Assembly: GCA_964566135.1 (NCBI GenBank)
Contig: CAZMHM010000004.1
Span: 12,596-76,595 of the forward strand
Length of the DNA stretch: 64,000 nt
Reading direction: 5' to 3'
From: an uncultured Candidatus Saccharibacteria bacterium
Lineage (GTDB): Bacteria; Patescibacteriota; Saccharimonadia; Saccharimonadales; CAIOMD01
Part shown: positions 3,684-44,095 of the stretch, in pieces
Layout: each line of letters begins with the position of its first letter
How positions within the stretch are numbered: the first letter of the stretch is position 1
Program-made: the position numbers and the translations under genes
Notes under the pieces: model-generated
The model's database searches: none
The model's input: the letters and a program-made list of their open reading frames with translations, nothing else
What the model was told of the DNA's origin: nothing

Positions 3684-3733
3684 AATCTCTCCTTTTATTT
3701 TGCGTTTTTGCTGTTTAAAGTACTATTACCTTA

Positions 3734-3761: not shown

Positions 3762-3794
3762 GAAGTTTTTTAAAATTTGTTGACTTATTTACAA

Positions 3795-7241: not shown

Positions 7242-7244
7242 AGT

Positions 7245-7703
7245 CTATCTCCAGCTTGCAACTACGAGGCCAGCGTATATGCTCAACATAGCAACAAACC
7301 AACCAATTTCGATAATCCAACCCCAGTATCGTTCGCCCCACTGAATATTGGCATGAAAGGTAGTGATGGGGTTTTTCATAGGTAACTCGCCATCTTTACG
7401 CTCACGATACATTCGGTACGCCCAAACGCTATCTGGTAGCATCGCCAAAAACATCGACGCCAGCACCAGCAACGTATACTGCCCTGCAGTCATAATCACG
7501 AGCCACGTAAACAGTAGTAGCATAATCATGTCTACGCCTAGTACTGTTTTAAAACGTGTTGCTCTTGCCTCGGGGGTTGGCTCGCCATAATGAGGCAACA
7601 TATCAAGCGCAAAGTGCGACAACAACGCCAGTGGTAAGACCCACCACTGTTTAGTTACAAGGGCCATATTTGCGGCAGTAATCGCGTGATTGGTGGCCGT
7701 CAT
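7245..7703 (-). CDS. Integral membrane protein between recA and recX; possibly YdjM/DUF457-like
   Basis: Four to five hydrophobic helices and an N-terminal H...HFALDMLPH pattern. The family assignment is tentative. Confidence 0.7.
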   Translation of the reverse strand: MTATNHAITAANMALVTKQWWVLPLALLSHFALDMLPHYGEPTPEARATRFKTVLGVDMIMLLLFTWLVIMTAGQYTLLVLASMFLAMLPDSVWAYRMYRERKDGELPMKNPITTFHANIQWGERYWGWIIEIGWFVAMLSIYAGLVVASWR

Positions 7704-7710
7704 TAGTTTA

Positions 7711-8745
7711 TTACTGTGGTAGCGCTGCTTGGCGTACGAGTTTGTCTATTTTTTTTAGATCTTCAGGATGGTCAGTCAGATATTGCTTGGCAGCTTCGCG
7801 GCCCTGGCCAATCTTAGCGCCATCGTATTCGAACCAGGCACCTGCCTTGCCTACAATGCCATGTGTTACGGCTAGGTCTAGCGTGTCACCTTCGCGGCTA
7901 ATGCCAACGTTATACATAATGTCGAATTCTGCTTCTCTAAACGGCGGGGCAATCTTATTTTTGACAACTTTTACGCGGGCACGGTTACCAATAACTTCTT
8001 CGCCACTTTTAATTTGGCTAATACGGCGAATGTCTAGACGGACCGATGCGTAAAACTTTAGTGCATTACCACCGGTAGTTGTTTCGGGATTGCCAAACAT
8101 GATGCCAATCTTCATACGTAACTGATTAATAAAGATAACTGTGGTGTGACTTTTGTTAATGACACCCGTGAGCTTGCGGAGTGCTTGGCTCATAAGTCGA
8201 GCCTGCAAACCCATGTGAGAGTCGCCCATATCGCCTTCTATTTCAGCTTGTGGTACAAGTGCGGCGACTGAGTCAACGACAATCAAATCTACTGCGTTGC
8301 TACGTACTAATGTTTCTACAATCTCGAGCGCCTGTTCGCCGTTGTCAGGTTGTGCAACCAATAAGTTAGCAATGTTTACCCCAATGCGTTCTGCGTAGGC
8401 AGGGTCAAGAGCGTGCTCGGCATCAATAAATGCAGCCGTGCCACCTTGCTTTTGAATTTCTGCAACCGCATGCAGTGTAAGTGTTGTTTTACCGCTACTT
8501 TCAGGGCCGTATACTTCGATGATGCGGCCTTTTGGAATACCACCACCAAGTGCAATATCAAGGCTAAGGCTACCGGTCGAAAACGTTTCAACATCAATTT
8601 TGTGATCGGCGCCAAGTTGCATAATCGCACCTGCACCAAATTGCTTTTTAATTTGATCGACAGCTAAGTTCAACGCTTGATCTTTGCCGCTCTGATCGGT
8701 CACCTCTGTAAGTGTGGTATCTTTTTTTGCAGATTTTGCAGCCAT
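7711..8745 (-). CDS. recA: Recombinase RecA
   Basis: [13 protein letters not shown] Walker A, the FIDAEHALD and IVVDSVAAL motifs, and full-length similarity. I chose start MAAKSAKK (8745), which has AGGGGAG upstream. Confidence 0.97.
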
Positions 8746-8876
8746 AATCGTTATACTCCCCTGTTTTACCCTATTAAATCTTGGTTGCATTATAGCAAAA
8801 CAAAATGGGCTCGTCAGAATAGTTTTTACATCATTCCATATAAATATACTTAAAACGCTTAACCTTATCGTCTATA

Positions 8877-10709
8877 ATGAGTCCAAAGCATATGCGTATA
8901 TCAGACAAACTAGTCGAAGAACTGCTTACCAAAACCAAGAAAGTTACTCCCGAACAGCTAACCGCCCTTAAGGAGCAAGAGCAGAACGAGAAGAAGCCAC
9001 TACAGGACGTAGTGATTGCTGCTAATGTCGTAAGCGAGAAAGACTTGACGCAAGCATTTGCCGAAGCAATCGATATTCCGTTTGTCGAAATAAATGTTAA
9101 AGAAATTCCTCGTGAAATTTTGCACCTTATCCCCGAACGCATCGCTCGTCAGTACGATGTTGTTGCCTACGGCGCCGAGGAAGACGGTACCAAGTTACTT
9201 GCCATGGAAGATCCTGACGATATTCAGGCAATTAGCTTTTTGCAAAAACAACTTGGTAACGAGCTAAAGATTTTTATCGCAACCCGTACTAATATCTTGC
9301 AAGCTATCGACCAATACCGCGAAAACATTAGTAGTGAAATTACACAGGTTATATCAGCCGAAGAAGAGGCCCAGGGCCAAGAAGGCGACGAATTTAATGA
9401 AGAGGATTTAGCAGAGGACTCACCAATTGCACAAACCGTAAACCTCATTATCGAGGGTGGTATTAAATCTGGTGCGTCAGATATCCATATAGAACCCCGC
9501 GAGAATTACGTATCAATTCGGTATCGCATCGACGGTATTCTGCGCGAAGTAAACAAACTGCCTAAAAAAGTTCATGGGGCGCTTGTATCACGTATCAAGA
9601 TTCTATCGAATCTCAAGATAGACGAACGCCGTGCGCCACAAGATGGGCGCTTTAAGATTGGTATTAACAGCCTTGTCTATGCGCTGCGTGTGTCAACGCT
9701 ACCTATCACAGAGGGCGAAAAAGTGGTTATGCGTATCCTAAATGAATCATCAAAAGCCCTTACGCTCGAAGAACTTGGCTACTGGGGCCACTCGCTTCAG
9801 ACAATTAACCACGCAATCGCACAACCACACGGCATGACACTAGTTACCGGGCCAACGGGTTCTGGTAAGTCTACAAGCTTGTTTAGCGTTTTGAGTCTGC
9901 TTAATAACCCAAGTGTTAATATCTCCACAGTTGAAGATCCAGTTGAGTATAAGATTCCTGGTGCGAATCAAACGCAGGTAAACCCACAAGCGGGTATGAC
10001 ATTTGCTGCTGGTTTGCGTGCCCTTTTGCGCCAAGATCCAAACATTATTATGGTTGGTGAGATTCGCGATGGAGAAACCGCTGGGCTTGGTGTACAGGCG
10101 GCCCTAACAGGTCACCTTGTGTTCGCAACCCTTCACACAAACAACGCTGCAACATGTTTACCCCGTTTACTCGATATGGGCATTGAACCATTCCTTATTG
10201 CCAGTACCGTGCGAGCGGTCGTTGGCCAACGCCTTGTGCGACGATTGTGTCCGAATTGCCGCGAACCATATACACCTGACGCAACTATTGTTAAGAAAAT
10301 TGCGGATGCTTTTGGGATTAAAGATGGTTCGTTTATGAAATATGTCCATGATTTAGAGGCGCAAGCACTCGAGGGTGGTATCGGAGCCTCAACCTTACCA
10401 GATAAAGATCCGAAATCAACAGGTGTTTTATCCACTACCGACGCAAAGATTCAAAAACTTTGGAAAGCAAAAGAAGGCGGCTGTGACGAATGTAACCATA
10501 TTGGCTATCGTGGTCGCATGGGTATTTACGAAGTACTCGGTAACTCAACAGAAGTACAGAAACTTATTGTCAGTAACGCGACGAGTGACGTTATTCAGGC
10601 TCAGGCAGTGAAAGAAGGCATGGTTATCATGCAAATGGATGGGTTCATTAAGGCACTTCGTGGCCAAACAACAATCGAGGAAATTTTGCGCGTAACCGCA
10701 GAAGAATAA
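8877..10709 (+). CDS. pilB: Type IV pilus assembly ATPase PilB (GspE family)
   Basis: GspE N-terminal domain, GPTGSGKST Walker A, the Asp/His boxes and a CxxC...CxxC tetracysteine (CPNC...CDEC). Confidence 0.93.
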   Translation: MSPKHMRISDKLVEELLTKTKKVTPEQLTALKEQEQNEKKPLQDVVIAANVVSEKDLTQAFAEAIDIPFVEINVKEIPREILHLIPERIARQYDVVAYGAEEDGTKLLAMEDPDDIQAISFLQKQLGNELKIFIATRTNILQAIDQYRENISSEITQVISAEEEAQGQEGDEFNEEDLAEDSPIAQTVNLIIEGGIKSGASDIHIEPRENYVSIRYRIDGILREVNKLPKKVHGALVSRIKILSNLKIDERRAPQDGRFKIGINSLVYALRVSTLPITEGEKVVMRILNESSKALTLEELGYWGHSLQTINHAIAQPHGMTLVTGPTGSGKSTSLFSVLSLLNNPSVNISTVEDPVEYKIPGANQTQVNPQAGMTFAAGLRALLRQDPNIIMVGEIRDGETAGLGVQAALTGHLVFATLHTNNAATCLPRLLDMGIEPFLIASTVRAVVGQRLVRRLCPNCREPYTPDATIVKKIADAFGIKDGSFMKYVHDLEAQALEGGIGASTLPDKDPKSTGVLSTTDAKIQKLWKAKEGGCDECNHIGYRGRMGIYEVLGNSTEVQKLIVSNATSDVIQAQAVKEGMVIMQMDGFIKALRGQTTIEEILRVTAEE

Positions 10710-25750: not shown

Positions 25751-26263
25751 TTAGTCTATGCGAATCGTATCCCCTTCTTTGACGCCCTGGGAGTCAAATG
25801 TGCCCTCTGGCACCTCTATAACATACCAACTCGGTTGGTTTGCATGATAGATTTCTGGATATTCGCCCGGTTTGGCGTTGTGCTTAATATAGACAACCTT
25901 GCCATCTTTAGTTAGCCAAGCAATATCTATAGGGAATCGCATTTGCACCATCCACATGCGCCAGTCACCGTTTTCCTCAAAGTCAAACAGCATACCCTTA
26001 TCGGCTCCGAGCGCGTCGCGTTGCGACAGACCTTTTTCACGTTTTGCGGGCGTATCGGCAATTTCGAGTGTAAACGCTTTTTTGCCGATTGTTACGTCTG
26101 TGAACCCAACGTTGTTAACATGCTGTCTAAACACAAAAAAACCAGCAACAAGTGCTATAACAATCGCAATCGATGCAACTATTAGTGCTAATGGGCCGCG
26201 CTGTTTACGCGCCGACTCGGTCTTTTTTGTTTCTTTGTTTGGCATTTCGCTCAATATATTCAA
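25751..26263 (-). CDS. DUF192-family protein with N-terminal membrane anchor
   Basis: GLSQRDALGADKGMLFDF...MWMVQMRFPIDIAW...YVIEVPEG pattern. The start is 26263 or 26245, and either overlaps the rimK 3' end out of frame by 41-59 nt. Confidence 0.7.
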   Translation of the reverse strand: MNILSEMPNKETKKTESARKQRGPLALIVASIAIVIALVAGFFVFRQHVNNVGFTDVTIGKKAFTLEIADTPAKREKGLSQRDALGADKGMLFDFEENGDWRMWMVQMRFPIDIAWLTKDGKVVYIKHNAKPGEYPEIYHANQPSWYVIEVPEGTFDSQGVKEGDTIRID

Positions 26264-27107
26264 TTATTTTTGTCGCAACATCCCGCTTGGTAATTTTTTC
26301 GATACCAAAACCTGGGCTCGAATTAACTTCTAGCACCAATGGTCCTCTGTCGCTACGCATCATATCGACGCCACAAATATGCAAGCCCATTGCACGGGCT
26401 GCTTTTAGTGCTGTCTTTTCTTCTTCGTCGGTTAATTTAACCGTCTTACCTTCACCACCTTGGTGTAAGTTTGACCTAAAGTCGTCATCGAGACTTTGGC
26501 GCTTGTAGCTCGCAACAACGCGTGAACCAACTACAAACGCCCTAATATCGGTACCGGCGGATTCTTTAACAAACTCTTGCACTAAAAAGTTTACACCTTC
26601 TACATAGAATGCTTGCATTACAGCTTGTGCAGCCTTGCGGGTTTCGGCTAGTACAACACCATTTCCATGCGTGCCACGTGCCACTTTAACAATAAGTGGC
26701 GCCCCACCGGCTTTTTCAACAACGTCGTCAAGATCAGCTGTTTCACGAGCGAACACTGTTTTTGGAATACCAACACCAGCTTTGGCTAATAATTGATAAC
26801 TGCGCAGTTTATCGCGAGAACGCACAATAGCCATTGAGCTAGCAGTTGTATAGACGCCTTGCATTTCAAACTGACGTACAACAGCAGTACCATACTTGGT
26901 ATAGCTCTGGGCAATACGTGGAATAATAGCGTCAAAGCCTACTAGCGGTTCACCCTTATAGTGCACAACCGGGGAATTCTTTTCGACTGTAATATAGCAC
27001 TTAGCGTAATTGATAATGCGTACTTCATGGCCACGCTCTTTAGCTACTTGCTTGAGCCGTTGCGTCGAGTAGTTTGCTCCACCCTTAGATAAGATAGCAA
27101 TTTTCAT
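26205..27107 (-). CDS. rimK: RimK-type alpha-L-glutamate ligase (ATP-grasp)
   Basis: Full-length pattern MKIAILS...PRI...SRDKLRSYQLLAKAGVGIP...PLIVKVARGTHGNGVVL...DIRAFVVG...GVDMMRS..GPLVLEVNSSPG. Confidence 0.9.
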   Translation of the reverse strand: MKIAILSKGGANYSTQRLKQVAKERGHEVRIINYAKCYITVEKNSPVVHYKGEPLVGFDAIIPRIAQSYTKYGTAVVRQFEMQGVYTTASSMAIVRSRDKLRSYQLLAKAGVGIPKTVFARETADLDDVVEKAGGAPLIVKVARGTHGNGVVLAETRKAAQAVMQAFYVEGVNFLVQEFVKESAGTDIRAFVVGSRVVASYKRQSLDDDFRSNLHQGGEGKTVKLTDEEEKTALKAARAMGLHICGVDMMRSDRGPLVLEVNSSPGFGIEKITKRDVATKIIEYIERNAKQRNKKDRVGA

Positions 27108-27598
27108 TATCTCCCATCCTCTTCATCGTTAGGGAAATCAATGCCATACTGCTTTTTTAAATCAATTCGATTGATGCTTGTTTCCGCAGTATCAACCAAG
27201 AAACGATTGTTAAGCATTTTACGGCCAAGTAAAATTGGATAAATTTTCTTTGACCTATCGGCAAGCGAAAACGTTGCAGAGAAGATTTTTGGGCCTAGTT
27301 TTACCCTAAGTTTGACTTCATATCTCTCTTCTCTGTGACCAAAAGAATTTGCTATCCAGACAGATTTAAAATCCTTAGTTTTAACCTCAGTAGCTAAGCT
27401 ACCACAGACAGGATGCCCACCAAGAAGTACAAACGATAGTTCTGAACCATCATCTGAAAGCACGATATTCGAAGCATGAACAGCCGACCGGTAGGCACCA
27501 GTGTCTACCTTGGCAGGGATGTCAGCAATTTGCTGCTCCATAAAATGTAGCAACTCTGCTCGGCCTACGATTACCTTGTGAAAATCTGTTCTTGCCAT
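27107..27598 (-). CDS. Retropepsin-like protease of the RimK-associated (DUF785, 'putative ATP-dependent zinc protease', RimB-type) family
   Basis: AKVDTGAYRSAVHA (D-T-G) and ILLGRKML motifs. TAATG overlap with rimK. Confidence 0.75.
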   Translation of the reverse strand: MARTDFHKVIVGRAELLHFMEQQIADIPAKVDTGAYRSAVHASNIVLSDDGSELSFVLLGGHPVCGSLATEVKTKDFKSVWIANSFGHREERYEVKLRVKLGPKIFSATFSLADRSKKIYPILLGRKMLNNRFLVDTAETSINRIDLKKQYGIDFPNDEEDGR

Positions 27599-27691
27599 TT
27601 CAAACCAATACTATCAAACTAATTATGGTTATTGTATTTGTTTTTTCTATTTAACTAGTATATTATATTACTAATTCGATTATTTGTCAAT

Positions 27692-28933
27692 ATGAAAACA
27701 GTCCTCATCGTCGGTGATAGCATGAAGCAGCTTAGGGATAAAATCCTCGAGTTAGGCTATGATTACGTACAATTGCGCGACATCAGAAAATGTAAAAATC
27801 CCGAAAAAGTACTAAAACGACGAGTAGTCTGCGATTTCTCCTCGAACGATACTATTGATGTTGCACTTAAGGAGCTAAAAAAACGTTATGTCGTTGATGG
27901 CATTATTAGCACCTACGAGAATTATATTTTGCAAGCCGCATATGTTGCCGAAATACTTGGGCTCCGTGGGATGCCAATTAGTGCTGCAGAGGCGTGCACC
28001 GATAAATACATTATGCGCGAGCTGTTTTCTAGTGCCCCTCGAAAGATTAGCCCTTCTTTTCAAGAGGTGCATTCTTTTGATGATATACAGGTTTTTATGC
28101 AAAACGCTAGCTACCCCGTCATACTTAAACCCGCAAACCTAGCAAAAAGCTTATTGGTCACCAAAAGCAGTACCGCAGAAGAGCTAAAAGCAAACTACGA
28201 AAAAACTGTATCTACAATAGATGGTATCTATAGAAAATATGCTCCTAACCGTACACCAAAAATTATAATTGAAGAATTCATGGAAGGACCTGTGCATTCG
28301 GTAGACGCATTTGTTGATGAGAATGGGACACCTCATGTACTAGAGAATGTTGTAGACTATCAAACTGGCTATGACATTGGCTATGATGATAATTTTCACT
28401 ATAGCCGCCTTTTACCAAGTAAGCTTTCTGCAGAAGAAATCGCCGAAATCAGAGAAGTTGCCGCACTAGGCTGCCGGGCACTTGGCATGCAAAGTTCACC
28501 AGCACATGTAGAAATAATACGGACAGTTAATGGACCAATGATTGTTGAAATCGGTGCTCGCAATGGCGGTTATCGCGAACGAATGCATAGCATTGCGAAC
28601 GGCATTGATATTATCAAGAATGCGCTAGCTCTTAGTTTTGGCGAACCACTTGATTTAACACCAACTTGCAATGATTCTTGCGCAGTTCTAGAACTCTTTC
28701 CAAAGAACCCAGGAACATTTACTGGCGTATCGGGAGAGGCACAATTAAAAAATCTTTCGTCGCTTGTATACTTTGCCATCAAACAGCCTGTCGGGTCTTA
28801 TGTGGGTAAGTCTTCGGAAGGCTACAAGATGTGTGCAATTATCATCTTGCATAACGCTGATACGGCAGCGTTTGATCGTGACTTAGCGTTTGTTAACGAC
28901 AATGTTTTTATAGAGACATCAGATAATCAATAA
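27692..28933 (+). CDS. ATP-grasp enzyme of the L-amino-acid-ligase type (413 aa)
   Basis: A pre-ATP-grasp N-domain, then TDKYIMRELF...YPVILKPANLAKS...IIEEFMEGPVHSVDAF...AHVEIIRTVNGPMIVEIGARNGG. Confidence 0.75.
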   Translation: MKTVLIVGDSMKQLRDKILELGYDYVQLRDIRKCKNPEKVLKRRVVCDFSSNDTIDVALKELKKRYVVDGIISTYENYILQAAYVAEILGLRGMPISAAEACTDKYIMRELFSSAPRKISPSFQEVHSFDDIQVFMQNASYPVILKPANLAKSLLVTKSSTAEELKANYEKTVSTIDGIYRKYAPNRTPKIIIEEFMEGPVHSVDAFVDENGTPHVLENVVDYQTGYDIGYDDNFHYSRLLPSKLSAEEIAEIREVAALGCRALGMQSSPAHVEIIRTVNGPMIVEIGARNGGYRERMHSIANGIDIIKNALALSFGEPLDLTPTCNDSCAVLELFPKNPGTFTGVSGEAQLKNLSSLVYFAIKQPVGSYVGKSSEGYKMCAIIILHNADTAAFDRDLAFVNDNVFIETSDNQ

Positions 28934-29918
28934 AGACTTTTGTCACTCGAGACCCTTGATTGTTTGTTGGGTGCTCGTGGATATACAATGATGGACACTT
29001 GTTCACCTCATTGATCATGGGGGCCAATGACTCAATCGTACTATCTCGCTGAGGAATGTCAGATACAAGAATATCTACTCCACAAAGTGGCAGACGGCTT
29101 GTTCTGGCAACTTTTTCTGCCAATGTAATGAGCCAATCAGGGGTTTGATCAGTGATATTATCTGTCTCGCCGCCAGAGCCATAATTTGCCTTTCCAAGCA
29201 CCAATATTTCTTCGCCATCATGCGGGATTCTATCTGGATTATCGGTTATTGCAACGTATTCTAGTGCCTCGATAACATCAATAGTCGCTAGCCGGGCTAC
29301 ATATCTTTCGCCACGATCCGGTTTATCATTGGATTGCTCGATAAGCGCTTTAATTGTATCTTTGCCATTGCCAAATACTCGTGCAGGAATCCTTAATACT
29401 GTAGCGACAAACTTATAATTGATGCATAAAATTCTTAGGTCGACAGCGCCACTATACATCTGTTGCAGTAGGGCTACTCTGCCGGAAATGCTTGCAGCAT
29501 ATGCTCTTTCAAGCGCAGCAGTTAGCGTAGTTTTATCAGTAATGCCTACAGTTATGCCATCGCCATGCGCACCATCGAGAGGTTTAGTAACGATTTCAGT
29601 TGACCACGCTAGTGCCTCGTCTAGTAAATCGTTTTCTATATCTTTACGAACAAGGAGTGTCGCCAGCACTGGTAGCCCCGCATCACGCATAACTTTATAC
29701 GTTGCATACTTATTGTCTGCTTGCATTGCCGCAGCAAACGTTGTGCCAGGAGGAGTCGAGCTGTAGATATCAACAGGGCCGTTATCTCTATGAATAGTAA
29801 TAAGTGCACTACCGGTTACTGGCACCGTAACCTTTAGGTTACGGCTTAAGGCTTCGGTACATATCAAGCGATTTGTCTGCCGAAAGCTATCAAGATTATC
29901 TTTTGTAACTTCGACCAT
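28908..29918 (-). CDS. Stand-alone ATP-grasp protein resembling the G domain of cyanophycin synthetase CphA
   Basis: KPLDGAHGDGIT, DLRILCINYKFVATVLRIPARVFGNGKDTIKALIEQSN, ANYGSGGETDNITD, GVDILVSDI and INEVNKCPSL match remembered CphA G-domain blocks (KPLDGNHGRGIT, RVPAHVIGDGK.TI..LIE, ANLSTGG, GIDVV..DI, EVNAAPG). Confidence 0.75.
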   Translation of the reverse strand: MVEVTKDNLDSFRQTNRLICTEALSRNLKVTVPVTGSALITIHRDNGPVDIYSSTPPGTTFAAAMQADNKYATYKVMRDAGLPVLATLLVRKDIENDLLDEALAWSTEIVTKPLDGAHGDGITVGITDKTTLTAALERAYAASISGRVALLQQMYSGAVDLRILCINYKFVATVLRIPARVFGNGKDTIKALIEQSNDKPDRGERYVARLATIDVIEALEYVAITDNPDRIPHDGEEILVLGKANYGSGGETDNITDQTPDWLITLAEKVARTSRLPLCGVDILVSDIPQRDSTIESLAPMINEVNKCPSLYIHEHPTNNQGSRVTKVFIDYLMSL

Positions 29919-30817
29919 TATTTCGTCTTTGAGACTAAATAGTCGTTTAGAACCGAAAGTTTTGCGGGCACATTGCTACCCGTACTAAGCTGAGGCATGT
30001 TGTTTGCTTCTAAGAAGTAGTGTTTTCCATCTCTTTTATCAACAACCATATCAACACCACCAACTTCTCTGCGTAACTCACGACTAATCGTTACTGCTTC
30101 GTCTACCATAACCTTGGATAAATCTTCGACGGGCACAACAACACCCGACCCGCCCTTAGAAGTGTTATTTAGGTGACTGCCTTCTTCGCCCTTGCGATGT
30201 ATTGCAAGCTTAACCGTACCGTCTAAAATAATTAACCTGTAATCGCCGTCATTTTCGATAAACGTTTGCACCACAAATTGCTGATCGGTGTTATCTGCGA
30301 TAATCTGTTTGATTTCTTCGGGACTTTTGGCAAGATAATTGTGATTACCCCGAGAAGCAGCTACGGCTTTTACAATTAATGGAAATGTATGGTTTGATGC
30401 CCAATTTGCAACTGCATCACTATTGTTTGTGACGATAAATGGAATAGTCTGAATACCCGCAAGACCAGCTATAACATACTGGCTGATTTTAGTGCGAGAA
30501 CGCGTGTACAAGGCTTCTTGATTTGCGTGAGGTATCCCGTAATATTCAGCATAACGCGCTACAGATAAAGCAGTATCCTCGAGTAGCTTTGTTTTAAACC
30601 AACCAAATTGAAATATCGCATCAAAATTGCTTAAATCAACATTATCACCAGTAGTAATACTAAGTTTTGTATCATAGCTAATAATTAAATCTTCATAGTC
30701 ACAGGCAACGTATGTTACGTCTGCAGACTCAAAATCCTTCATGCCGGCTTTCATTGTTTGTGATGTATCGTAGTCGATTCGATCATCGCGACGACATAGT
30801 AATAGTATTTGCTTCAT
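29918..30817 (-). CDS. Second RimK/GshB-like ATP-grasp ligase
   Basis: PLIVKAVAASRGNHNYL, FVVQTFIENDGDYRLIIL, GGVDMVVDKRDGKHYFLEANNMPQ. I start at MKQILLL (30817). TAATG overlap with the CphA-like gene. Confidence 0.7.
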   Translation of the reverse strand: MKQILLLCRRDDRIDYDTSQTMKAGMKDFESADVTYVACDYEDLIISYDTKLSITTGDNVDLSNFDAIFQFGWFKTKLLEDTALSVARYAEYYGIPHANQEALYTRSRTKISQYVIAGLAGIQTIPFIVTNNSDAVANWASNHTFPLIVKAVAASRGNHNYLAKSPEEIKQIIADNTDQQFVVQTFIENDGDYRLIILDGTVKLAIHRKGEEGSHLNNTSKGGSGVVVPVEDLSKVMVDEAVTISRELRREVGGVDMVVDKRDGKHYFLEANNMPQLSTGSNVPAKLSVLNDYLVSKTK

Positions 30818-30882
30818 GGAAATTAGCTTATCATAATCTGTTAGTGCTTGCAATATTTATCTTTTTATGTTATTATGCTGTT

Positions 30883-31617
30883 ATGAATATCATCGCAATT
30901 GGCGGTGGCGAAAAAGAAAAAGCCATTAGTCAGGCATTAGCAGCGGCAGATAACCAGAATGTTTTATTAATTCCCTCCGCATGCTCGACGGAAACATCTT
31001 ATAGCAAAAAAGTTGGTTTGCTGGTTGAATATTTCCATAAATTTGGCATCCCTGGTGTACAAGTGTTGCATGGCTATGACGAAACGCCTTCTCGGGCACA
31101 AATAGAAGATATGTTTGGCGAAAGTGGCATGGCGTATGTTATTGGTGGTAACACACCTTATATGTTGGATACTATCAAAAACCACGGTACGGATGTCGAA
31201 ATAGCAAACGCCACTCGGAACGGCATGGTACTCGCAGGTACAAGCGCCGGCGCAATTCTCCCGTTTAGGCACGGCCAAGTAAACCCAGCCACTAAACCAG
31301 CTTTGCAAGAATGGGAATTTGAATATCGTGAGGGGCTTGGCATTGTCGATGCCACTGTTGGCGTTCATGCCGGTAAAAAAGATGCTGTTATTGGCGGTTT
31401 TCGCGAAAAAACAAGAGGTGAGTACCTAGAGGAAACGGTTGGTTCGATCTCTGATACGGCACTCGCGATAGATGAAGGGGCTGCGGTTTCAGTGACCGAA
31501 AGTGGACTTAGCGTTATCACATCTAGTCCCGATGCTCGTGTTCGAATACTACAAAAAGGCAAAAAAAATACCACCCTTGGTGATGGTGATACTTTTAGCG
31601 ATATTAAAGCCCTTTAG
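30883..31617 (+). CDS. Peptidase S51 family (cyanophycinase / dipeptidase E type)
   Basis: MNIIAIGGGEK, VIGGNTPYML and LAGTSAGAI (Ser nucleophile motif). I chose ATG 30883 rather than the track's 30712 extension, which overlaps the divergent gene. Confidence 0.8.
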   Translation: MNIIAIGGGEKEKAISQALAAADNQNVLLIPSACSTETSYSKKVGLLVEYFHKFGIPGVQVLHGYDETPSRAQIEDMFGESGMAYVIGGNTPYMLDTIKNHGTDVEIANATRNGMVLAGTSAGAILPFRHGQVNPATKPALQEWEFEYREGLGIVDATVGVHAGKKDAVIGGFREKTRGEYLEETVGSISDTALAIDEGAAVSVTESGLSVITSSPDARVRILQKGKKNTTLGDGDTFSDIKAL

Positions 31618-31765: not shown

Positions 31766-32878
31766 CTAGCTAAACAAGCCGTGCTTGCCAGGCTCTTTTT
31801 GGAACTCTTGCAGTAGTTCTTTTTGGCGCTTGCTCAGTTTAGTTGGCGTTGCGACATCGAGCGTCACAATGTGTGCACCACGGCTTTCGCTTTTAAGATG
31901 TGGCACGCCATGACCAGATAGCTTAAAGTCACTGCCGCTTTGCGTACCGGCGGGTACTTTAATGGTTATTACGCCATCAACGGTATCTACTTTTAGCTCG
32001 CCACCAAGGGCAGCAGTTACCATATCAACCGATTCGTGGCTGAGTATTAGATCGCCTTCTCGGGTGAATTTTTTGTGCGATTTCACGCGTACATGTACAT
32101 ATAAATCACCTTTGGGGCCATTTAGTATGGCTTCGCCGTATTCGCGCAGGCGTATAGTTGCGCCATCATCAATACCGGCAGGTATTTTTAGGTCTACCTT
32201 TTGTTCTTTGCGCTTTACACCCTTACCGCCACAGACACTACAAGCCTTTTCGGGCTTTTTACCACTGCCGTGGCAGTCTGGGCAACGTTGCGCTTGCTGG
32301 ATGTTGCCTAAAATGGTGCGAGTTACGGTAACAACTTGACCGCTCCCCTTACAGGTCGGGCAGGTTACGAGCTCATGCCCAGGTTCGGCGCCATTACCTT
32401 TACAGTGTTCACATTCGGCTTCTACATTGAGTTTTAAGGTCTTTTCAACCCCGAATACAGCTTCTTCGAACGTTAAATCAATAACCGTTTCGATATCACG
32501 CCCACGACGGGCTTGTTGGCGTTGTTGACCACCACCAAAGAAGCTACCAAACATGTCGCCTAAATCACCAAAATCAAAATTAATGTTTTGGCCGTTAAAG
32601 TTAAAGCCCTGACCGGTAAAGTCGTAGGCTCCACCGCCGTAACCAGGGCCACCACCATTACCACCAACGCCAGCATGACCAAACTGATCGTAGCGCTTGC
32701 GCTTTTCGGTGTCTTTTAGTACCTCGTAGGCTTCGTTGATTTCTTTGAACTTAGATTCGTCACCACCTTCTTTATCTGGGTGATGGAGCACGGCTAATCG
32801 GCGGAACGCTTTTTTAATTTCGTCCGCCGATGCGTCTTTGGAGACGCCTAATACTTCGTAATAATCACGCTTTGCCAT
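31766..32878 (-). CDS. dnaJ: Chaperone DnaJ (Hsp40)
   Basis: J domain with HPD, a G/F region and four CxxCxGxG zinc-finger repeats. Confidence 0.97.
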   Translation of the reverse strand: MAKRDYYEVLGVSKDASADEIKKAFRRLAVLHHPDKEGGDESKFKEINEAYEVLKDTEKRKRYDQFGHAGVGGNGGGPGYGGGAYDFTGQGFNFNGQNINFDFGDLGDMFGSFFGGGQQRQQARRGRDIETVIDLTFEEAVFGVEKTLKLNVEAECEHCKGNGAEPGHELVTCPTCKGSGQVVTVTRTILGNIQQAQRCPDCHGSGKKPEKACSVCGGKGVKRKEQKVDLKIPAGIDDGATIRLREYGEAILNGPKGDLYVHVRVKSHKKFTREGDLILSHESVDMVTAALGGELKVDTVDGVITIKVPAGTQSGSDFKLSGHGVPHLKSESRGAHIVTLDVATPTKLSKRQKELLQEFQKEPGKHGLFS

Positions 32879-32880
32879 AA

Positions 32881-33414
32881 TTACTTATTTGGGCCTTGTT
32901 TGCTTAAGGTATCATACAAATTTTTTGGGGGCATACCTAATTGAATTTGGTCTACAATTAAAATTAACTCTTCGGTTTTGTCCTTAAGTGTCCGCACTGC
33001 TTCATCAATTTCATTTAATTGAGCTGCTTTGACCTTAAGGATTTTGTGCGCCACTTTATTTCTAGATTCGTTGATTGAATTTAAGAGAGCCAGGATATCT
33101 TCTCGCCTTGGAAACTCAAACTTCTTAAGTCCTTTTATACAGTTCCCAATATTCATATCTTTAATCGTCGTTTTTCTGATAGTAATTACACCATGATAAT
33201 ATTCACCGACCGCGGTTTCGGCATAATCTGTAATGTTCGCCAATAGATACTCAGCAAGATAATCCGCAACATTCATGTACAGTAATGCAGCAGATAGCTC
33301 ATAGGCCAGAGATTCATCTTCATCCTTCGCTACATTACTCTTCGATAAATGTTCTCTAGCAATAGCAAGGAAATGTCTTTTTACCTCTAACTCTTCATGA
33401 GAGAAAGCTGGCAT
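32881..33414 (-). CDS. Hypothetical helical protein with a HEPN-type R-N-x-x-A-H motif, inserted between dnaK and dnaJ
   Basis: SINESRNKVAHKIL fits Rx4-6H. There are 2-nt gaps to both the dnaK stop and the dnaJ start. Confidence 0.5.
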   Translation of the reverse strand: MPAFSHEELEVKRHFLAIAREHLSKSNVAKDEDESLAYELSAALLYMNVADYLAEYLLANITDYAETAVGEYYHGVITIRKTTIKDMNIGNCIKGLKKFEFPRREDILALLNSINESRNKVAHKILKVKAAQLNEIDEAVRTLKDKTEELILIVDQIQLGMPPKNLYDTLSKQGPNK

Positions 33415-33416
33415 TT

Positions 33417-35318
33417 CTATTTTTCTTTCTTGTCTTCTTCTTTTTCGTCGACGACTTCGCCTTCTACGGGACCGTCTTCTTTTTTGGTGTCGTCGGCTTT
33501 TGCTTCGCCTGCGTCAGCTGATTCGTACAGCTTGGCACCAATAGGCATAATCTTATCCGTTAAGTCTTTGGCGGCCTTTTCTAACTCTTCTTTATCAGTG
33601 CTTTCGGCTTTGCCTTGAGCTTCTTTAATAGCTTCGTCGAGCGTTTTCTTATCTTCTTCGCTGACCTTATCGCCATTATCATCCTTAAGCTTTTGAGCTT
33701 GGTAAATAGCGTTTTCTAAACCATTACGGGCATCAACTGCTTCGCGCTTCTTCTTGTCATCTTCGGCATGTGCTTCGGCTTCTTTTCGGGCTTTCTCTAC
33801 TTCGGCCTTATCAAGGTTACCACTGTTCTGGATCGTAATACTCTGCTCTTTGCCAGTGCCCTTATCTTTAGCAGTAACATTTAAGATACCGTTTGCATCG
33901 AGGTTAAAGGTAACTTCGATTTGTGGGATACCGCGTGGTGCTGGTGCGATACCATCGAGTAAGAATCGGCCCAAGCTCTTGTTGTCGCTAGCCATTTCGC
34001 GCTCGCCTTGCAATACATGGATTTCAACTTGTGGTTGATTATCGGCTGCTGTACTAAAGGTTTCGCTCTTGCTGGTAGGGATAGTTGTATTGCGCTCAAT
34101 AAGTTTGGTGCTAACACCGCCCATAGTCTCGATACCGAGGCTTAGTGGGGTTACATCAAGTAGTAACACGTCTTTCACGTCACCGGCTAGTACGCCGCCC
34201 TGTATGGCAGCACCAACAGCTACAACCTCGTCTGGGTTTACACCCTTCATAGGCTCTTTACCAAAGATCTTTTGGACCTTTTCTTGCACGCTTGGCATAC
34301 GAGTCATACCACCAACCAAAATGACTGCATCAATGTCACTAGCCTTTAGGCCAGCATCCTTTAATGCTTTTTCACATGGGATAGCAGTACGGTCGATTAA
34401 ATCGCCGACGAGGCTTTCTAGTTTAGCGCGGGTAAGCTTGGTTTCAAAGTGCACAGGACCATCGGCAGTCGCGGTTAAGAATGGCAAGTTAATAGTAACT
34501 TCGTTAGTAGTACTGAGCTCAATCTTAGCCTTTTCGCCTTCGTCACGTAAGCGCTGCATAGCAGCTTTATCGTCAGTTAGGTCTTGGCCGTTTTCTTTCT
34601 TAAATTCATCAATAAGGTAATTAACAATCACGCGGTCAAAGTCAGCACCACCTAAGTGTGTGTCACCATTGGTACTCTTTACTTCAAAGACACCATCGCC
34701 GAGTTCTAGGATTGATACGTCAAAGGTACCACCACCAAGGTCGTATACGGCAATCTTTTCGTCTTTGCCACCTTTATCAAGACCATACGCTAATGCAGCT
34801 GCGGTCGGTTCGTTGATAATACGCTTAACCTCTAGGCCAGCGATTTTACCAGCGTCTTTTGTGGCTTGCCGCTGTGCATCGTCAAAATATGCAGGTACGG
34901 TAATAACGGCCTCTGTTACGGGCTGACCCAAGAAAGCTACGGCGTCTGCCTTGAGCTTGCTAAGCACCATTGCGCTGAGTTCTTCTGGGCTGTATTCTTT
35001 GTCGCCCATCTTTACCTTTACGCCATCTTTGCTTTTGACCATTTCGTAGCCCATAAGCTTGATATCGCGCTGTACTTCTTTGTCTTCCCAGCGACGACCA
35101 ATAAGGCGCTTCATCTCATAAATAGTGTTTTTAGGGTTCGTCACACTTTGGCGACGAGCCAATTGGCCAACTAAACGTTCGCCACCTTTATTAAGCGCAA
35201 TCACACTTGGAGTGGTACGGTTACCCTCTGTATTAGCAATAATTTCTGGCTTGCCGCCTTCCATTACTGCCATTGCGCTGTTGGTTGTTCCTAAGTCGAT
35301 TCCTAAAATTTTACCCAT
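33417..35318 (-). CDS. dnaK: Chaperone DnaK (Hsp70)
   Basis: GIDLGTTNS and DLGGGTFD motifs, full-length similarity, acidic C-terminal tail. Confidence 0.98.
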
Positions 35319-35804: not shown

Positions 35805-36539
35805 TTACCCCTGTTGAAACATTGATGATTCTAGCGTTTTGCCAGTATGGCGAACTAAGTTCATAACCGTACGATAACTTTGTCGTGTTGGGCCAACAAT
35901 TCCGATGTAGCTGCGGTCGCTGTATGGGCTACGGAAACGACTGACTATTAACGTACAACCGCTGGCTTTACCAATTGGGTTTTCTTGCCCAATGTATACA
36001 CTGAGCGGTTCGTTTGGCTGTGCTTCGCGCAACCAAGGTTCTAAGTTATCAAGTAGCTGAGCAACTTCGTGAACGGCTGTGCCATTAGCAAATTCTGGTT
36101 GGCTAAATAGGTTAGAAATGCCACTCATGTACAATTGGTCGCCAATAGTAGCGATTGCAAGGTTTTGCGTAATCTCTACTAAGCTATCCACGGCAGATTT
36201 AATCGCCTGGGCAGCTTCGCCGGCACCCTTTATGCGAACGTCAATCGCTCTCGCACTGCGATTGACCACTGGCACAAGACCAGTTTCGGTAACTTCTGTT
36301 ACCTGGTTTACATAAAAACGGTAGCCCTTGTCGGTTGGAATACGGCCTGCGGATGTATGTGGCTGTTCTATATAACCGGTTTCTTCAAGCCGTGCCATTT
36401 CGGCACGTATCGTTGCGGACGACACGCCAAATAAGTTAGCCAGAAGCACAGAGCCAACTGGGGCTGCGACTTCTGCGTATTGTTCAACAATGGCGCATAA
36501 AATTTTTGCTTGTCGTTCGGTCATAATTCTGTCACTCAC
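35805..36539 (-). CDS. hrcA: Heat-inducible repressor HrcA (short form, 244 aa)
   Basis: LTERQAKILCAIVEQY...PVGS...SSATIRAEMARLEETGYIEQPHTSAGRIPT, with a CIRCE element upstream. Confidence 0.9.
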   Translation of the reverse strand: MSDRIMTERQAKILCAIVEQYAEVAAPVGSVLLANLFGVSSATIRAEMARLEETGYIEQPHTSAGRIPTDKGYRFYVNQVTEVTETGLVPVVNRSARAIDVRIKGAGEAAQAIKSAVDSLVEITQNLAIATIGDQLYMSGISNLFSQPEFANGTAVHEVAQLLDNLEPWLREAQPNEPLSVYIGQENPIGKASGCTLIVSRFRSPYSDRSYIGIVGPTRQSYRTVMNLVRHTGKTLESSMFQQG

Positions 36540-36575
36540 GCTAGCGTATTGCTAACCTATATCTAGTGTAAAAAA

Positions 36576-36602
36576 TTAGCACTCATGTGTCAAGAGTGCT
36601 AA
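36576..36602. promoter_or_regulatory. CIRCE operator (HrcA binding site)
   Basis: Perfect TTAGCACTC-N9-GAGTGCTAA, 37 nt upstream of the hrcA start. Confidence 0.9.
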
Positions 36603-36622: not shown

Positions 36623-37363
36623 TTATCGTAAGAAGTTATCAATATCTGCCAAAAGCTGCTGCGCATGTGAATGAGCAGCAGTCTGCTCTGCTTCGCCAAA
36701 GCTACTACTAATAATGTGCTCGTGAAGTTCTTCTACGGTAACTTTAATTTCCCAGTTAATGATGAACCTGAAGTATGAGCGTTGTAGTGCAAGTTGAATT
36801 TCTTCCATGGCACTCATAAGGCGACGTCGTTTTTCAGCCGGATCCATGACACCACGCCCATCCATCCGCTTCATCCATTCTTCGAATGTAGGCGGCAAAA
36901 TAAATACCGCCAGCGTTGTATCACTGAAACTCTTTATGTTGTCACACCCGTGAATCTCTACATCTGTAATCGCAATCTTGCCGGTTTGTGCTGCCGAGCG
37001 AATTTCGTTAAGACTAATACCTGAAACTTGCTGGTTGTGGATAATCGCTGCCTCTATATATGCGCCATTTTTAAGACCTTGTAAAAACTCATCTTCGGTC
37101 TTAAACCAATACTCTTCACCGCTTCTTTCGGGGACACCGTTATTAATTCGTGGCCTACGTGTGGTATCTGAAACCAAAAAATGATAACGCCCCGTCATGA
37201 TAAGAGTATTGATAATAGTGTTGCGGCCAGACGCAGACGGACCTGAAACAATTACTAGTTGTGTCGTTTGCAATATATCGAGAATTTCGAGACTCGGTTT
37301 GTAATCACGCAAAATTCGTTGAAAATCGTGTAAATGTCGTAGTGGCGATGCATCGTTAGACAT
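36623..37363 (-). CDS. Guanylate-kinase-like protein with degenerate P-loop and N/C-terminal extensions
   Basis: GK-fold blocks (SDTTRRPR, EEYWF, GAYIEAA) are present, but the P-loop reads GPSASGRNT instead of GPSGxGKS/T. Confidence 0.65.
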   Translation of the reverse strand: MSNDASPLRHLHDFQRILRDYKPSLEILDILQTTQLVIVSGPSASGRNTIINTLIMTGRYHFLVSDTTRRPRINNGVPERSGEEYWFKTEDEFLQGLKNGAYIEAAIIHNQQVSGISLNEIRSAAQTGKIAITDVEIHGCDNIKSFSDTTLAVFILPPTFEEWMKRMDGRGVMDPAEKRRRLMSAMEEIQLALQRSYFRFIINWEIKVTVEELHEHIISSSFGEAEQTAAHSHAQQLLADIDNFLR

Positions 37364-41296: not shown

Positions 41297-43162
41297 CTAA
41301 TAAAGTGCTGCGTCTTTAGGTAGCTTAGTGCCAGTAAGTAGCTTATCTACTTCTTCGGCCTCAACAGTTTCCTTATCAAGCAATGCGTCTTTTAGTGCTT
41401 CTAGGTGCTTAAGATTTGCTCGAATAACAACACGAGCACGCTTGGCTGCCTCGGTAATAAGGTTTTCTACCTCTTCATCGATAACCTTAGCTGTTTCGTC
41501 TGAATACTGACGCTCGTGGACAATTCTATCCATCATCATGCCGTCTTCTGTGTGGAAAACTTGATTTCGAAGCTTTGTACCCATTCCCTGATTTACAACC
41601 ATTTCACGGGCAAGTTCTGCGGCTTTTTGTAAGTCGCTACCCGCACCAGTCGTAACGCGATCTGGCCCAAGGATTACTTCTTCTGCGATGCGGCCACCGA
41701 GTGCGCGTGCAAGGATATCTTTATATTCGATTATCGATGTATAAACTCTGTCTTCTGGTGGCAAGAACCACGTTACACCGCCCGTACCACCTCGTGGAAT
41801 GATTGTTACCTTGTGTACAGGGTCACTGTCTGGTAATACATGGCCAACGATTGCATGACCTGCTTCGTGATAAGCTGTTGTCGCTTTGTCAGCTTCGGAC
41901 ATAATCTTATTTTTGCGTTCTGGGCCGATTGCTACCTTTTCGAATGCAGAAGTGATATCGTCGTTCGTAATTTGCGTTCTGTCAGCGCGGGCAGCAATAA
42001 TTGCTGCTTCGTTGGCGATGTTTGCAAGATCAGCACCGCTCGAACCGGCAGTCTTTGCAGCAAGTGCATCAAGATCAACATCTTTAGAAACAGGTTTTTT
42101 AGCAAAGTGAACTTTAAGAATCTCAAACCTGTCTTTTCGATCTGGCAAACCAATACCTACTCGACGGTCAAAACGACCAGGGCGCAATAATGCCGGGTCA
42201 AGCACGTCCATTCGGTTTGTAGCCGCAAGTACAATAACATTCTGACCTTGCTCAAAACCGTCCATCTCAACCAAAATTTGATTAAGGGTTTGCTCGCGTT
42301 CATCATGGCCACCACCCATACCGCTACCACGGCGACGGCCGACTGCGTCAATTTCGTCAATAAAGATAATACACGGTGCGTTCTTTTTAGCCTTTGTAAA
42401 TAAATCACGTACACGGCTAGCGCCAACACCAACAAACATCTCGACAAATTCTGAACCACTAATGCTAAAGAATGGTACATTTGCCTCGCCAGCAACAGCT
42501 CTCGCCAACATTGTTTTACCGGTTCCCGGAGGGCCGACAAGAAGTACGCCCTTAGGAATCTTGGCGCCAACACCTAAGAACTTTTTAGGAAACTTTAAGA
42601 ACTCTACTACTTCTTCTAAATCTTGCTTGGCTTCTTGATTACCAGCAATATCAGCAAACTTAACTGCTTCTTTTTCGGTGCCATACAGGCGCGCACTACT
42701 CTTGCCAAAGCCCATAGCCTGGTTACCTTGACCTTGCGCAGAGCGAAGCATAAATACCAGTACAAGTGTAATGATAATTACAGGCAATAAGTTAATCGCG
42801 ATTGCCGTCCAGGTAGAACCGGCATTCGATGATGCTTTGAAATCAACCGTTACATCTCGGTTCGTAAGACCACCAGGACCATACAGACTTGTCCCTGCTT
42901 CTTTACGAGTAACTTCGGTAGCTTTATCGCCACCCTTTACGGTAACTTCTACTTTTTCGCCATCAACAACAAGTCGACTTATTTCGCCTTTGTTAGCACG
43001 ATTCATTACATCGTTATACGACTTATTAGCGAGCTTGGCTGGCTGGTTGTAACTTAAAAAGAATATTGCGGCAAATGCGGCAATAATAAGGATAAATCCG
43101 ATGTTCTTGAACCATTTACGCTGGCTCGTCTGTTTCTTCCCACGTGGTAATTTTTTCTCCAT
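41297..43162 (-). CDS. ftsH: ATP-dependent zinc metalloprotease FtsH
   Basis: GPPGTGKT Walker A, the SRH region and the HEAGHA zinc site. Confidence 0.98.
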
Positions 43163-43171
43163 AAGTTGTAA

Positions 43172-44095
43172 TTATACGTGCTTTACGGCCTCTTGCCTAC
43201 CTCGAGATTGCTGAAATCTCGCAGAACGCTTGGTGAGCAATATTGTGACGCCACTTGCCTGTAGTGTTTTACCATGCGCCAAGGTCTTAATTTGTACCAC
43301 TAGGCGCTCGATTGTTTTTCTATCGATATCTTTTGCGCCAGCCCTACGAAGCAAGTTGTGTATAACCTCTTTAGCAATATCGTGTGGCAATGAAATAAAC
43401 CAAGCTCTATTTAAAATAAGTTGGTCTTTATGCAATCCACGACGCAAAAGATGTTGAATCTCTGCATCGAGCTTTTCGTTATTATTATGCGTTCTTTCAA
43501 GTGTTGTTAGCCACTGTCTTTTTTGCTCGACAGTCATTGCAGGCACGACCTCGTGGCGAATTTTATTACGCAAATATTTCGTGTCTGTGTTCGTGCTATC
43601 CTCGCGCCATTCCAGACCATGCGAGTGTGCATATTCGATTATCTCTACTTTTGGTATCCCCAAAAGAGGACGCATAAGTTCGGAAGTACTTTTGAGGGAG
43701 CTAAGGCCGTGGCGACCCGTACCGCGCAAAATATTAATCATGCTTGTTTCGATAACATCGTCTTGGTGGTGCGCAGTAATAATTGCGGCGGCGTTATATT
43801 TTTTGAACATCATGCGCAAAAATGCATATCGCTTTTCACGGGCTAATGCCTCACTTGCACCGTGCCCCAGTTCGGCTCGTTCAGATTCAAACGGTACGTG
43901 GTACTTTGTAGCGAGGTGTGCAACAAATATTGCATCCTGCGCGGAGTCTTCCCGAATACCATGGTCAAAGTGTGCAATTACCAGCTGTAGGTCTGCCTGC
44001 TTGGCGAGCATATCAAGTAAGACGACAGAATCGACACCACCAGAAACCGCAACAATATACGTACCCGGCGGAACTAATACATGCTCACTACTCAT
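43172..44095 (-). CDS. tilS: tRNA(Ile)-lysidine synthase TilS
   Basis: VAVSGGVDS PP-loop. It sits directly upstream of ftsH, a common arrangement. Confidence 0.9.
   Translation of the reverse strand: MSSEHVLVPPGTYIVAVSGGVDSVVLLDMLAKQADLQLVIAHFDHGIREDSAQDAIFVAHLATKYHVPFESERAELGHGASEALAREKRYAFLRMMFKKYNAAAIITAHHQDDVIETSMINILRGTGRHGLSSLKSTSELMRPLLGIPKVEIIEYAHSHGLEWREDSTNTDTKYLRNKIRHEVVPAMTVEQKRQWLTTLERTHNNNEKLDAEIQHLLRRGLHKDQLILNRAWFISLPHDIAKEVIHNLLRRAGAKDIDRKTIERLVVQIKTLAHGKTLQASGVTILLTKRSARFQQSRGRQEAVKHV

Follow-up and report, generated by a model that had tools for sequence, protein, structure and literature searches.

A HEPN-like gene linked to dnaK in the heat-shock operon of a Candidatus Saccharibacteria genome

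The heat-shock operon and gene X

Our analysis covers a 64,000-nucleotide stretch of DNA (the window) from an uncultured Candidatus Saccharibacteria bacterium (GenBank assembly GCA_964566135.1, contig CAZMHM010000004.1), in which a CIRCE/HrcA heat-shock operon carries an additional gene between dnaK and dnaJ. This gene, here termed X, encodes a stand-alone HEPN-like protein of 177 amino acids, whose relatives share two invariant residues and in nine loci directly follow dnaK. The features of the locus are as follows.

36623–37363, minus strand: gmk (Pfam-confirmed)
36576–36602: CIRCE operator, the HrcA binding site upstream of hrcA; perfect TTAGCACTC-N9-GAGTGCTAA, 0 mismatches
36565–36593, minus strand: sigma-70-like promoter TTGACA-17-TACACT; 10 of 12 consensus positions, a consensus match only
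35805–36539, minus strand: hrcA, 244 aa; Pfam HrcA 6.9e-20, 74% identity to the orthologue in the related locus L001
35337–35801, minus strand: grpE, 154 aa; Pfam GrpE 3e-38
33417–35318, minus strand: dnaK, 633 aa, a full-length Hsp70 whose gene is preceded by its own Shine-Dalgarno sequence, GAGGAG; Pfam HSP70 8.2e-262
32881–33414, minus strand: X, 177 aa, ATG start, stand-alone HEPN-like protein; open reading frame (ORF), homologues, profiles and models
33262–33264, minus strand: codon of D51, an invariantly acidic residue in predicted helix 2
33046–33063, minus strand: codons of R118-N-K-V-A-H123, the Rx4H motif predicted to be catalytic, located where helix 3 ends
31766–32878, minus strand: dnaJ, 370 aa, which ends the operon and lacks its own Shine-Dalgarno sequence; Pfam DnaJ, DnaJ_CXXCXGXG and DnaJ_C

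Pfam matches for all four named operon genes, the coordinates and the perfect operator (chance expectation 0.01) bear out the gene order CIRCE-hrcA-grpE-dnaK-X-dnaJ given in the initial annotation. X lies 2 nt from either neighbor, as that annotation had stated: the junctions read TAG-AA-ATG toward dnaK (dnaK stop ends at 33417, X starts at 33414) and TAA-TT-ATG toward dnaJ (X stop ends at 32881, dnaJ starts at 32878). The promoter-like site overlaps CIRCE, and its -35 element TTGACA sits within the 9-nt spacer of the operator (window 36565–36602), so that HrcA binding would directly occlude the promoter. No terminator-like site was found on the minus strand between the promoter and the end of dnaJ. 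The proposed co-transcription of X with the chaperone genes is upheld. We found no paralogue of X in the window. The HrcA proteins of this operon and of the related loci L001 and L002 are just 230–244 aa long (window 35805–36539; L001 2363–3076; L002 812–1504), and their Pfam matches cover just the C-terminal half of the HrcA profile (positions 100–215); a typical HrcA has ∼340 aa.

A protein family with an invariant Rx4H motif

X has no significant match in Pfam. A word-indexed search of 5.8 billion proteins returned 14 relatives (clusters at 90% identity), all unnamed and 172–223 aa long, and a profile search of the same database with our alignment A2 added just two proteins. When 1.84 billion cluster representatives were searched exhaustively with a profile, the family grew to 110 clusters (50% identity) at E ≤ 1e-3, mostly solo proteins of ∼150–230 aa; the exceptions are short fragments, one 328-aa protein and one 1105-aa repeat protein, and none of the larger members contains an informative domain fusion. 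X founds an undescribed protein family for which neither Pfam nor NCBIfam holds a model. Many members, especially those encoded outside the dnaK operon (P0009–P0012, P0016, P0035 and P0061), end in Lys-rich basic tails such as KKRKLKKKK or KKNKSNKKSKK, whose composition suggests nucleic-acid or ribosome binding.

An alignment of 74 divergent family members (mean column identity 18%) contains only two invariant columns, R118 and H123, which are also invariant in all 14 of the relatives found first. Both residues belong to the peptide SINESRNKVAHKIL (R118 at 33061–33063, H123 at 33046–33048), the R-N-x-x-A-H motif on which the initial annotation had based its HEPN call. The residue following R118, asparagine in X (N119), is Asn in 49 and Asp in 11 of the 74 sequences, hence one or the other in 60, and position 51, in the predicted helix 32–72, is Asp or Glu throughout (74 of 74). 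This position has no Lys or Arg at +4, so Ex3[KR] as such is absent. Ala-19, Leu-96 and Phe-101 are nearly invariant. Judged from the alignment, the conservation of R118 and H123 is that of an active site rather than of a structural helix. The motif as such occurs at chance level: an R-x4-H spacing occurs ∼0.2 times per 177 aa (window ORFs), and RNx3H is also present in FtsH (41297–43162) and TilS (43172–44095; YLRNKIRHEV) of the window. As both are identified proteins, we rejected them as further candidates and regard their motifs as chance matches. The motif alone is thus not diagnostic of HEPN domains; its conservation is what exceeds chance.

Sequence profiles connect X to the RNases that accompany type III CRISPR systems under the names Csm6 and Csx1. 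X matches the PADLOC CARF_HEPN model at 3.9e-6, with residues 60–169 aligned to the C-terminal part of the model, and further the PADLOC Csm6 and Csx1 models; its sole NCBIfam match is cas_csm6 (4e-4, model positions 356–425 of 433). When the 74 members were compared with PADLOC (E ≤ 1e-3), 13 of the 16 matching families were CARF-HEPN, Csm6 or Csx1 models (best E-value 2.3e-7), and cas_csm6 was the only recurrent NCBIfam family (7 members). Weak Pfam matches fell to HepT-like (3 members), Cas_Csm6_HEPN (2), DUF3644 (2) and Ribonuc_2-5A, the KEN domain (1), and the closest homologue of X bears a precomputed weak Cas_Csm6_HEPN match. Reversed X, three shuffled versions and X with 10 residues of the motif region masked gave no HEPN match at E ≤ 1, which argues that the signal is not an artifact of composition or coiled coils. 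In a phmmer search, ...INESRNKVAHKIL... of X aligned to ...MNSSRNKVAHSLS... of Streptococcus thermophilus Csm6' (PDB ID 8pcw) with a marginal E-value of 0.04, the seven-residue stretch SRNKVAH of X being identical in the HEPN motif region of Csm6'. By profile comparison, X is closest in sequence to the HEPN domains at the C termini of the Csm6-type RNases that are ancillary to CRISPR systems.

The predicted structure points in the same direction. AlphaFold2 models of X reached a predicted local distance difference test score (pLDDT) of 75.7 with 14 sequences and of 92.6 with 74 sequences (predicted template modeling score 0.86). They are all-helical, as the initial annotation had predicted, and the model from 74 sequences has helices at residues 9–28, 32–72, 104–124 and 130–160 and a short helix (89–96) in an insert loop. 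R118 and H123 lie at the end of helix 104–124, followed by a five-residue loop and helix 130–160. The HEPN fold has been described as two α-hairpins with a variable insert between helices 2 and 3, in which Rx4-6H stands at the end of helix 3 leading into the loop to helix 4, a polar residue, mostly Asn, Asp or His, directly follows the conserved Arg, and helix 2 carries an acidic residue, typically within Ex3[KR] (PMC3710099). The modeled helix order, the insert, the position of the motif and the polar and acidic residues of X agree with this published definition (PMC3710099). Among the top 50 Foldseek matches in the PDB, nine are HepT and MtlR HEPN structures, with non-significant E-values (∼1–3 for HepT).

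Several results weigh against the assignment, and thereby against the functional reading developed below. The profile signal leans heavily on the 10 residues around the motif, since masking them removes it, and every Pfam or NCBIfam match lies far below the curated cut-off (19 bits versus 150 for TIGR02672). Fold searches with Foldseek against PDB and BFVD gave no significant match (best E-value 0.2–1). Comparison of the family profiles A1 and A2 by hhalign with Thermus thermophilus Csm6 (pTT27) revealed no similarity, and the Csm6' fragment was matched with just 16% probability. PDB sequences searched with the profiles A1 and A2 or with single sequences yielded coiled-coil-like noise except for Csm6' at E ∼0.03–0.04. 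Used as queries, the Csm6' fragment retrieved two short fragments from the protein database and nothing from plasmids, and the HEPN domain of T. thermophilus Csm6 retrieved only near-identical Thermus copies.

These negative results would be expected if X were a four-helix bundle outside the HEPN superfamily, with an R-x4-H pair serving another purpose and Csm6-type matches reflecting a short convergent motif, as the chance motifs in FtsH and TilS illustrate. We consider this highly improbable: the PADLOC alignments extend over 90–110 residues and not over the motif alone, helix order, insert and motif positions, the polar residue after the Arg and the acidic residue in helix 2 all fit the published fold definition, and the top natural Foldseek matches are strongly enriched in HEPN structures. 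The HEPN assignment of the initial annotation thus holds in its family features, namely the invariant Arg and His, the polar and acidic residues, the recurrent Csm6 and CARF-HEPN profiles and the helix order and topology of the model with a pLDDT of 92.6; the hhalign comparisons with single Csm6 sequences and the fold searches add no significant match. Taken together, X very probably belongs to the HEPN superfamily, an assignment that is well supported but not proven.

Csm6 was rejected as an identity, as X is an all-helical protein of 177 aa without a CARF domain and no cas genes occur among its called neighbors. A HepT-MntA toxin was likewise rejected, since no MNT gene lies beside X or its 15 homologues. 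Nor does X match a family of known Hsp70 co-chaperones (J-domain, GrpE or BAG type) significantly.

The position of X, tightly embedded between dnaK and dnaJ, nevertheless raises the question of a lineage-specific co-chaperone: X could be a catalytically silent HEPN-like or other helical adaptor that binds nucleotide, RNA or DnaK and acts as an assembly or exchange factor. Some HEPN domains have no RNase activity, and the one beside the J domain in human sacsin has lost the motif (PMC3710099). Searches of Pfam and NCBIfam co-chaperone families with X found no match and no J-domain. BAG1 chains, representing exchange factors, match X very weakly (E 0.16–0.4), but these matches are at noise level and fall in the coiled-coil-like region 104–160, which matches designed coiled coils as well. 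A nucleotide exchange factor, GrpE, is already present in the operon, homologues occur away from any chaperone gene, and R118 and H123 as the sole invariant residues of 74 sequences form the signature of a catalytic site rather than of a binding surface. We therefore regard an adaptor role as improbable.

Linkage to dnaK and expression of X

Nine X homologues (47–100% identity) directly follow dnaK, at distances between a 1-nt overlap of the called genes (L019) and 6 nt past the stop codon. They are found in the window, L001, L002, L013, L014/15, L016, L017, L019/20 and L021; in L016, the 49 nt upstream of the X homologue encode the C terminus of DnaK. dnaJ comes immediately downstream in five of these nine loci, and the remaining downstream genes are a 144-aa ORF (with dnaJ 1.1 kb beyond it), a 177-aa ORF, ydjM and cutA. 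Since X stands behind dnaK in nine of nine cases while the gene downstream varies, its conserved partner is dnaK and not dnaJ. Six further homologues (L003/L008, L004, L007, L009/10, L011 and L012) lie elsewhere in their genomes, L003/L008 and L004 being from metagenome-assembled genomes of Candidatus Saccharimonadia and Candidatus Saccharibacteria.

In a neighbor-joining tree (200 bootstraps), the dnaK-linked genes form a core clade with 72% support and the relocated genes one with 83%. The most divergent member with the order dnaK-X-dnaJ, P0013 (47% identity), falls outside both clades in 59% of the replicates and with the core in 28%. Read from this tree, the linkage to dnaK is old and arose, or was lost, once. 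X shares 67% identity with its counterpart in L001, compared with 68% for GrpE, 74% for HrcA and 88% for DnaK; the corresponding values for L002 are 56, 43, 62 and 74%. By these identities, X has diverged roughly as fast as GrpE and HrcA.

The related operons contain further additions. L001 has a 90-aa ORF between grpE and dnaK (3537–3809) and a 791-aa ORF after dnaJ (7700–10075), and L002 has two reverse ORFs and hsp20 between grpE and dnaK (2050–3979) as well as a 144-aa ORF and a MarR gene between X and dnaJ (6736–7603). The X-carrying lineage has a hot spot for insertions in its heat-shock operon. Convergent on dnaJ in the window (26205–31617) are four ATP-grasp ligase-type genes (RimK, ATP-grasp_4, one without a Pfam match and RimK-like) and a Peptidase_S51 gene; the same cluster follows the L001 heat-shock operon and may be a module for the ligation and degradation of peptides or poly-amino acids.

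Within the operon, dnaK is preceded by GAGGAG, and X and dnaJ lack a Shine-Dalgarno sequence in most genomes. The RNA of the dnaK-X junction is A-rich and unstructured, and folding of the dnaK-X and X-dnaJ junctions gave z-scores of -0.5 and -1.2, revealing no significant structure. The translational coupling suggested earlier therefore rests solely on the spacing of the genes and the missing Shine-Dalgarno sequence. In each of the nine linked loci, X has a lower GC content at third codon positions (GC3) than the flanking chaperone genes (for example 0.33 versus 0.43 in the window, 0.48 versus 0.77 in L002 and 0.36 versus 0.54–0.61 in L021). Overall GC of X is also 5–15 points under that of the adjacent chaperone genes in all linked loci, at genomic GC contents of 37–59%. 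Recent horizontal insertion as the sole cause of the low GC was rejected, because the linkage to dnaK reaches down to 47% identity and the linked genes form a coherent clade. As the arrangement is old, recent transfer is a less likely cause of the low GC3 than weaker codon selection and lower expression. Expression of X in stoichiometric amounts with Hsp70 and Hsp40, as the initial annotation had it, is unlikely given the missing Shine-Dalgarno sequence and the lower GC3 in nine of nine loci; the sequence features would instead predict the order DnaK > X ≥ DnaJ.

The neighbors of 15 homologues were searched for a conserved partner or antitoxin, and no neighbor is common to these contexts; the earlier statement that X has no MNT-type antitoxin or other partner extends in this sense to the 15 homologues. 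Among the called neighbors of X and of all homologues there are no cas families (the window was not searched for CRISPR arrays), and the operon, which holds only hrcA, grpE, dnaK, X and dnaJ, contains neither McrB nor McrC. A tblastn search of phages with X found no match and only one family member matches PHROGs, so that a phage origin is not supported.

Some distant relatives lie in accessory or defense-like surroundings. One adjoins a HicA toxin gene that is preceded by a 117-aa ORF (L011 1625–2278), another near GIY-YIG, T4 endonuclease-IV-like, DUF2726 and PLD-SNF2 helicase genes (L005 3376–9226), and a third beside a divergent AAA_11/Schlafen-like helicase gene (L009 2–2002). Such surroundings invite the reading of X as a conflict or abortive-infection toxin guarded by DnaK together with DnaJ. 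Bound by the chaperone, X would stay monomeric and inactive until a surge of unfolded or phage proteins titrates DnaK away, and it would then dimerize, degrade RNA and arrest the cell. Its place behind dnaK would couple the production of toxin and guard and leave the guard in surplus, which suits the layout of the genes (a Shine-Dalgarno sequence for dnaK and none for X, and the lower GC3 of X). A chaperone guard would also fit the linkage to dnaK rather than dnaJ and the lack of a conserved antitoxin-like partner in the 15 contexts; the family is rare and patchily distributed, and HEPN RNases pair with Hsp70-like proteins in CoCoNuT defense systems (PMC11090510). However, DnaK in this operon is the full-length housekeeping chaperone under CIRCE, unlike degenerate Hsp70-like proteins. 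The evolutionary rate of X does not exceed that of GrpE or HrcA, which is unusual for defense toxins, phage and plasmid collections contain no matches and PHROGs essentially none, and six homologues function without an adjacent dnaK. On balance, a guarded toxin seems unlikely.

One of the six relocated homologues sits between rRNA genes. In L004 (2268–9499 of JAAXXM010000001), the X homologue (4989–5534) is located inside an expanded 16S-23S rRNA spacer together with an AAA_33/KTI12-like P-loop kinase ORF (4027–4533), tRNA-Ala and tRNA-Ile. It has its own GGAGG Shine-Dalgarno sequence and is preceded by a terminator-like hairpin, and thus looks like an independent insertion. In eukaryotes, Las1 acts with the kinase Grc3 in the processing of internal transcribed spacer 2. 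The L004 pairing of a HEPN-like gene with a kinase gene recalls this couple, Las1 being a HEPN protein (PMC3710099). X could accordingly be a housekeeping-type nuclease for maturation or quality control of rRNA, tRNA or ribosome-associated RNA, whose position behind dnaK provides strong growth- and stress-linked expression and is unrelated to chaperone function. The moderate evolutionary rate of X and the Lys-rich tails, which are typical of RNA or ribosome binders, would be compatible with such a role. Yet the rRNA-spacer case is a single one of apparently independent origin, no kinase or ligase partner recurs, and the family is far too rare for a core processing enzyme of Saccharimonadia; we hold this explanation to be quite unlikely.

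Proposed function and comparison with known systems

We favor the reading that X is a CARF-less, Csm6-like HEPN RNase that was captured into the heat-shock operon and probably throttles translation under proteotoxic stress, and assign it a probability of roughly 0.5. A single capture, in one lineage of probable Saccharimonadia, would have placed the gene immediately 3' of dnaK, where it has been retained. Transcribed solely from the CIRCE/HrcA-controlled promoter, X would rise in output with the heat-shock response. Its translation may stay below the level of DnaK, whether by ribosomes coming straight from termination on dnaK or through Shine-Dalgarno-independent initiation on the unstructured, A-rich junction. 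By analogy with characterized HEPN enzymes, X is expected to homodimerize, and its R118/N119/H123 motifs, aided by D51, may form the active site of a metal-independent endoribonuclease whose products end in 2',3'-cyclic phosphates. Under proteotoxic stress, X would then cut RNA and so throttle translation or clear RNA, lowering the client load of DnaK and DnaJ. An arrest of translation by HEPN domains that buys time for the chaperones was proposed in 2013 (PMC3710099), and the conserved linkage of X to dnaK suggests a tie between RNA cleavage and the response to protein-folding stress. We consider it somewhat probable that X is an active RNase. Stress-coupled throttling of translation as its specific role is a tentative proposal, possible but with the odds leaning against it.

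The genomic data also hold points that tell against this reading. The family is rare, with 14 clusters (90% identity) in 5.8 billion proteins and 2 pattern-limited matches in 185,579 species genomes, a rarity that argues against any core housekeeping role. Six homologues (41–50% identity) are located outside any chaperone operon, and together with the rarity this means that the role of X cannot be essential to the heat-shock response. The defense-like and toxin-antitoxin neighbors of distant relatives fit an accessory or conflict gene equally well, as does the persistently low GC3.

In a more specific version of stress-coupled cleavage, X would be a chaperone-gated RNase, the bacterial counterpart of BiP-Ire1. 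DnaK and DnaJ would keep X monomeric until unfolded proteins, arising from heat or phage assembly, titrate the chaperones, whereupon X would dimerize via its HEPN face and cut RNA, so that translation falls until folding recovers. The order dnaK-then-X, with X made by ribosomes leaving dnaK, would keep the guard in excess. We regard both the gating and this role of the gene order as very unlikely.

Known roles of HEPN RNases are those of toxins, CRISPR effectors and eukaryotic stress or RNA-processing enzymes, and our literature search found no paper linking HEPN proteins to hrcA/dnaK operons or to Saccharibacteria. If X is active, as the favored reading has it, it would offer a simple, testable bacterial case for the 2013 idea that HEPN-mediated translational arrest buys the chaperones time, and a parallel to sacsin and Ire1. 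The X family, with 110 clusters and no Pfam model, could join catalogs of HEPN and defense genes, and the heat-shock operon of these reduced genomes emerges as a tolerated insertion site. The impact is limited, as the family is rare, its hosts are uncultured and its function is inferred rather than measured; the findings are of relevance to specialists in HEPN proteins, toxins and proteostasis.

Among known systems, Csm6/Csx1 proteins provide the best and only recurrent profile matches of the X family, on their C-terminal HEPN part, and the motif region S-R-N-K-V-A-H of S. thermophilus Csm6' is identical to that of X. In contrast to them, X lacks a sensor domain, whether CARF or another, and cas genes are absent from its vicinity; there is thus no obvious control by cyclic oligoadenylates; X is not a Csm6. 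HepT of the HepT-MntA (HEPN-MNT, type VII) toxin-antitoxin systems resembles X as a small, stand-alone HEPN protein of similar size, and HepT structures (PDB IDs 8yuf, 6m6u, 5yep, 6m6w, 7bxo and 8xdj) are the commonest natural proteins among the top, non-significant Foldseek matches. The MNT nucleotidyltransferase gene that accompanies HepT is however absent beside X and its 15 homologues, so X is not a HepT-MntA toxin either.

Physical coupling of a HEPN module to the Hsp70/J-protein system is known from eukaryotic sacsin, in which a J domain is followed by a HEPN domain. The latter has been proposed to act on RNA, limiting translation while the chaperones clear aggregates (PMC3710099). Sacsin is one giant polypeptide with a HEPN domain of the MNT-associated HEPN-T clade and has lost the motif in humans, whereas X is a separate, Csm6-like gene with invariant Arg and His. 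The KEN domain of Ire1 and RNase L is a HEPN domain as well (PMC3710099), and one X-family member weakly matches the corresponding Pfam family Ribonuc_2-5A. Ire1 differs from X in being a transmembrane kinase-RNase whose HEPN domain is circularly permuted. In the unfolded-protein response, this HEPN-type RNase is restrained by the Hsp70 BiP and cuts RNA, lowering the folding load; control of X by Hsp70 is purely hypothetical.

In prokaryotes, the McrBC-like CoCoNuT systems of types II and III associate HEPN nucleases with proteins of the Hsp70 family (CnuD; PMC11090510). CnuD is a degenerate Hsp70-like ATPase within a McrB/McrC defense operon, and X, by contrast, stands beside canonical DnaK without McrB or McrC genes. 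The operon itself corresponds to the canonical Gram-positive-type hrcA-grpE-dnaK-dnaJ operon in its perfect CIRCE element, gene order and single promoter, but has an extra HEPN gene between dnaK and dnaJ, to which relatives add the 90-aa ORF, hsp20 and the 144-aa ORF. In sum, X represents a new family within a known superfamily, found in a genomic association that is both new and conserved, and does not amount to a new kind of system.

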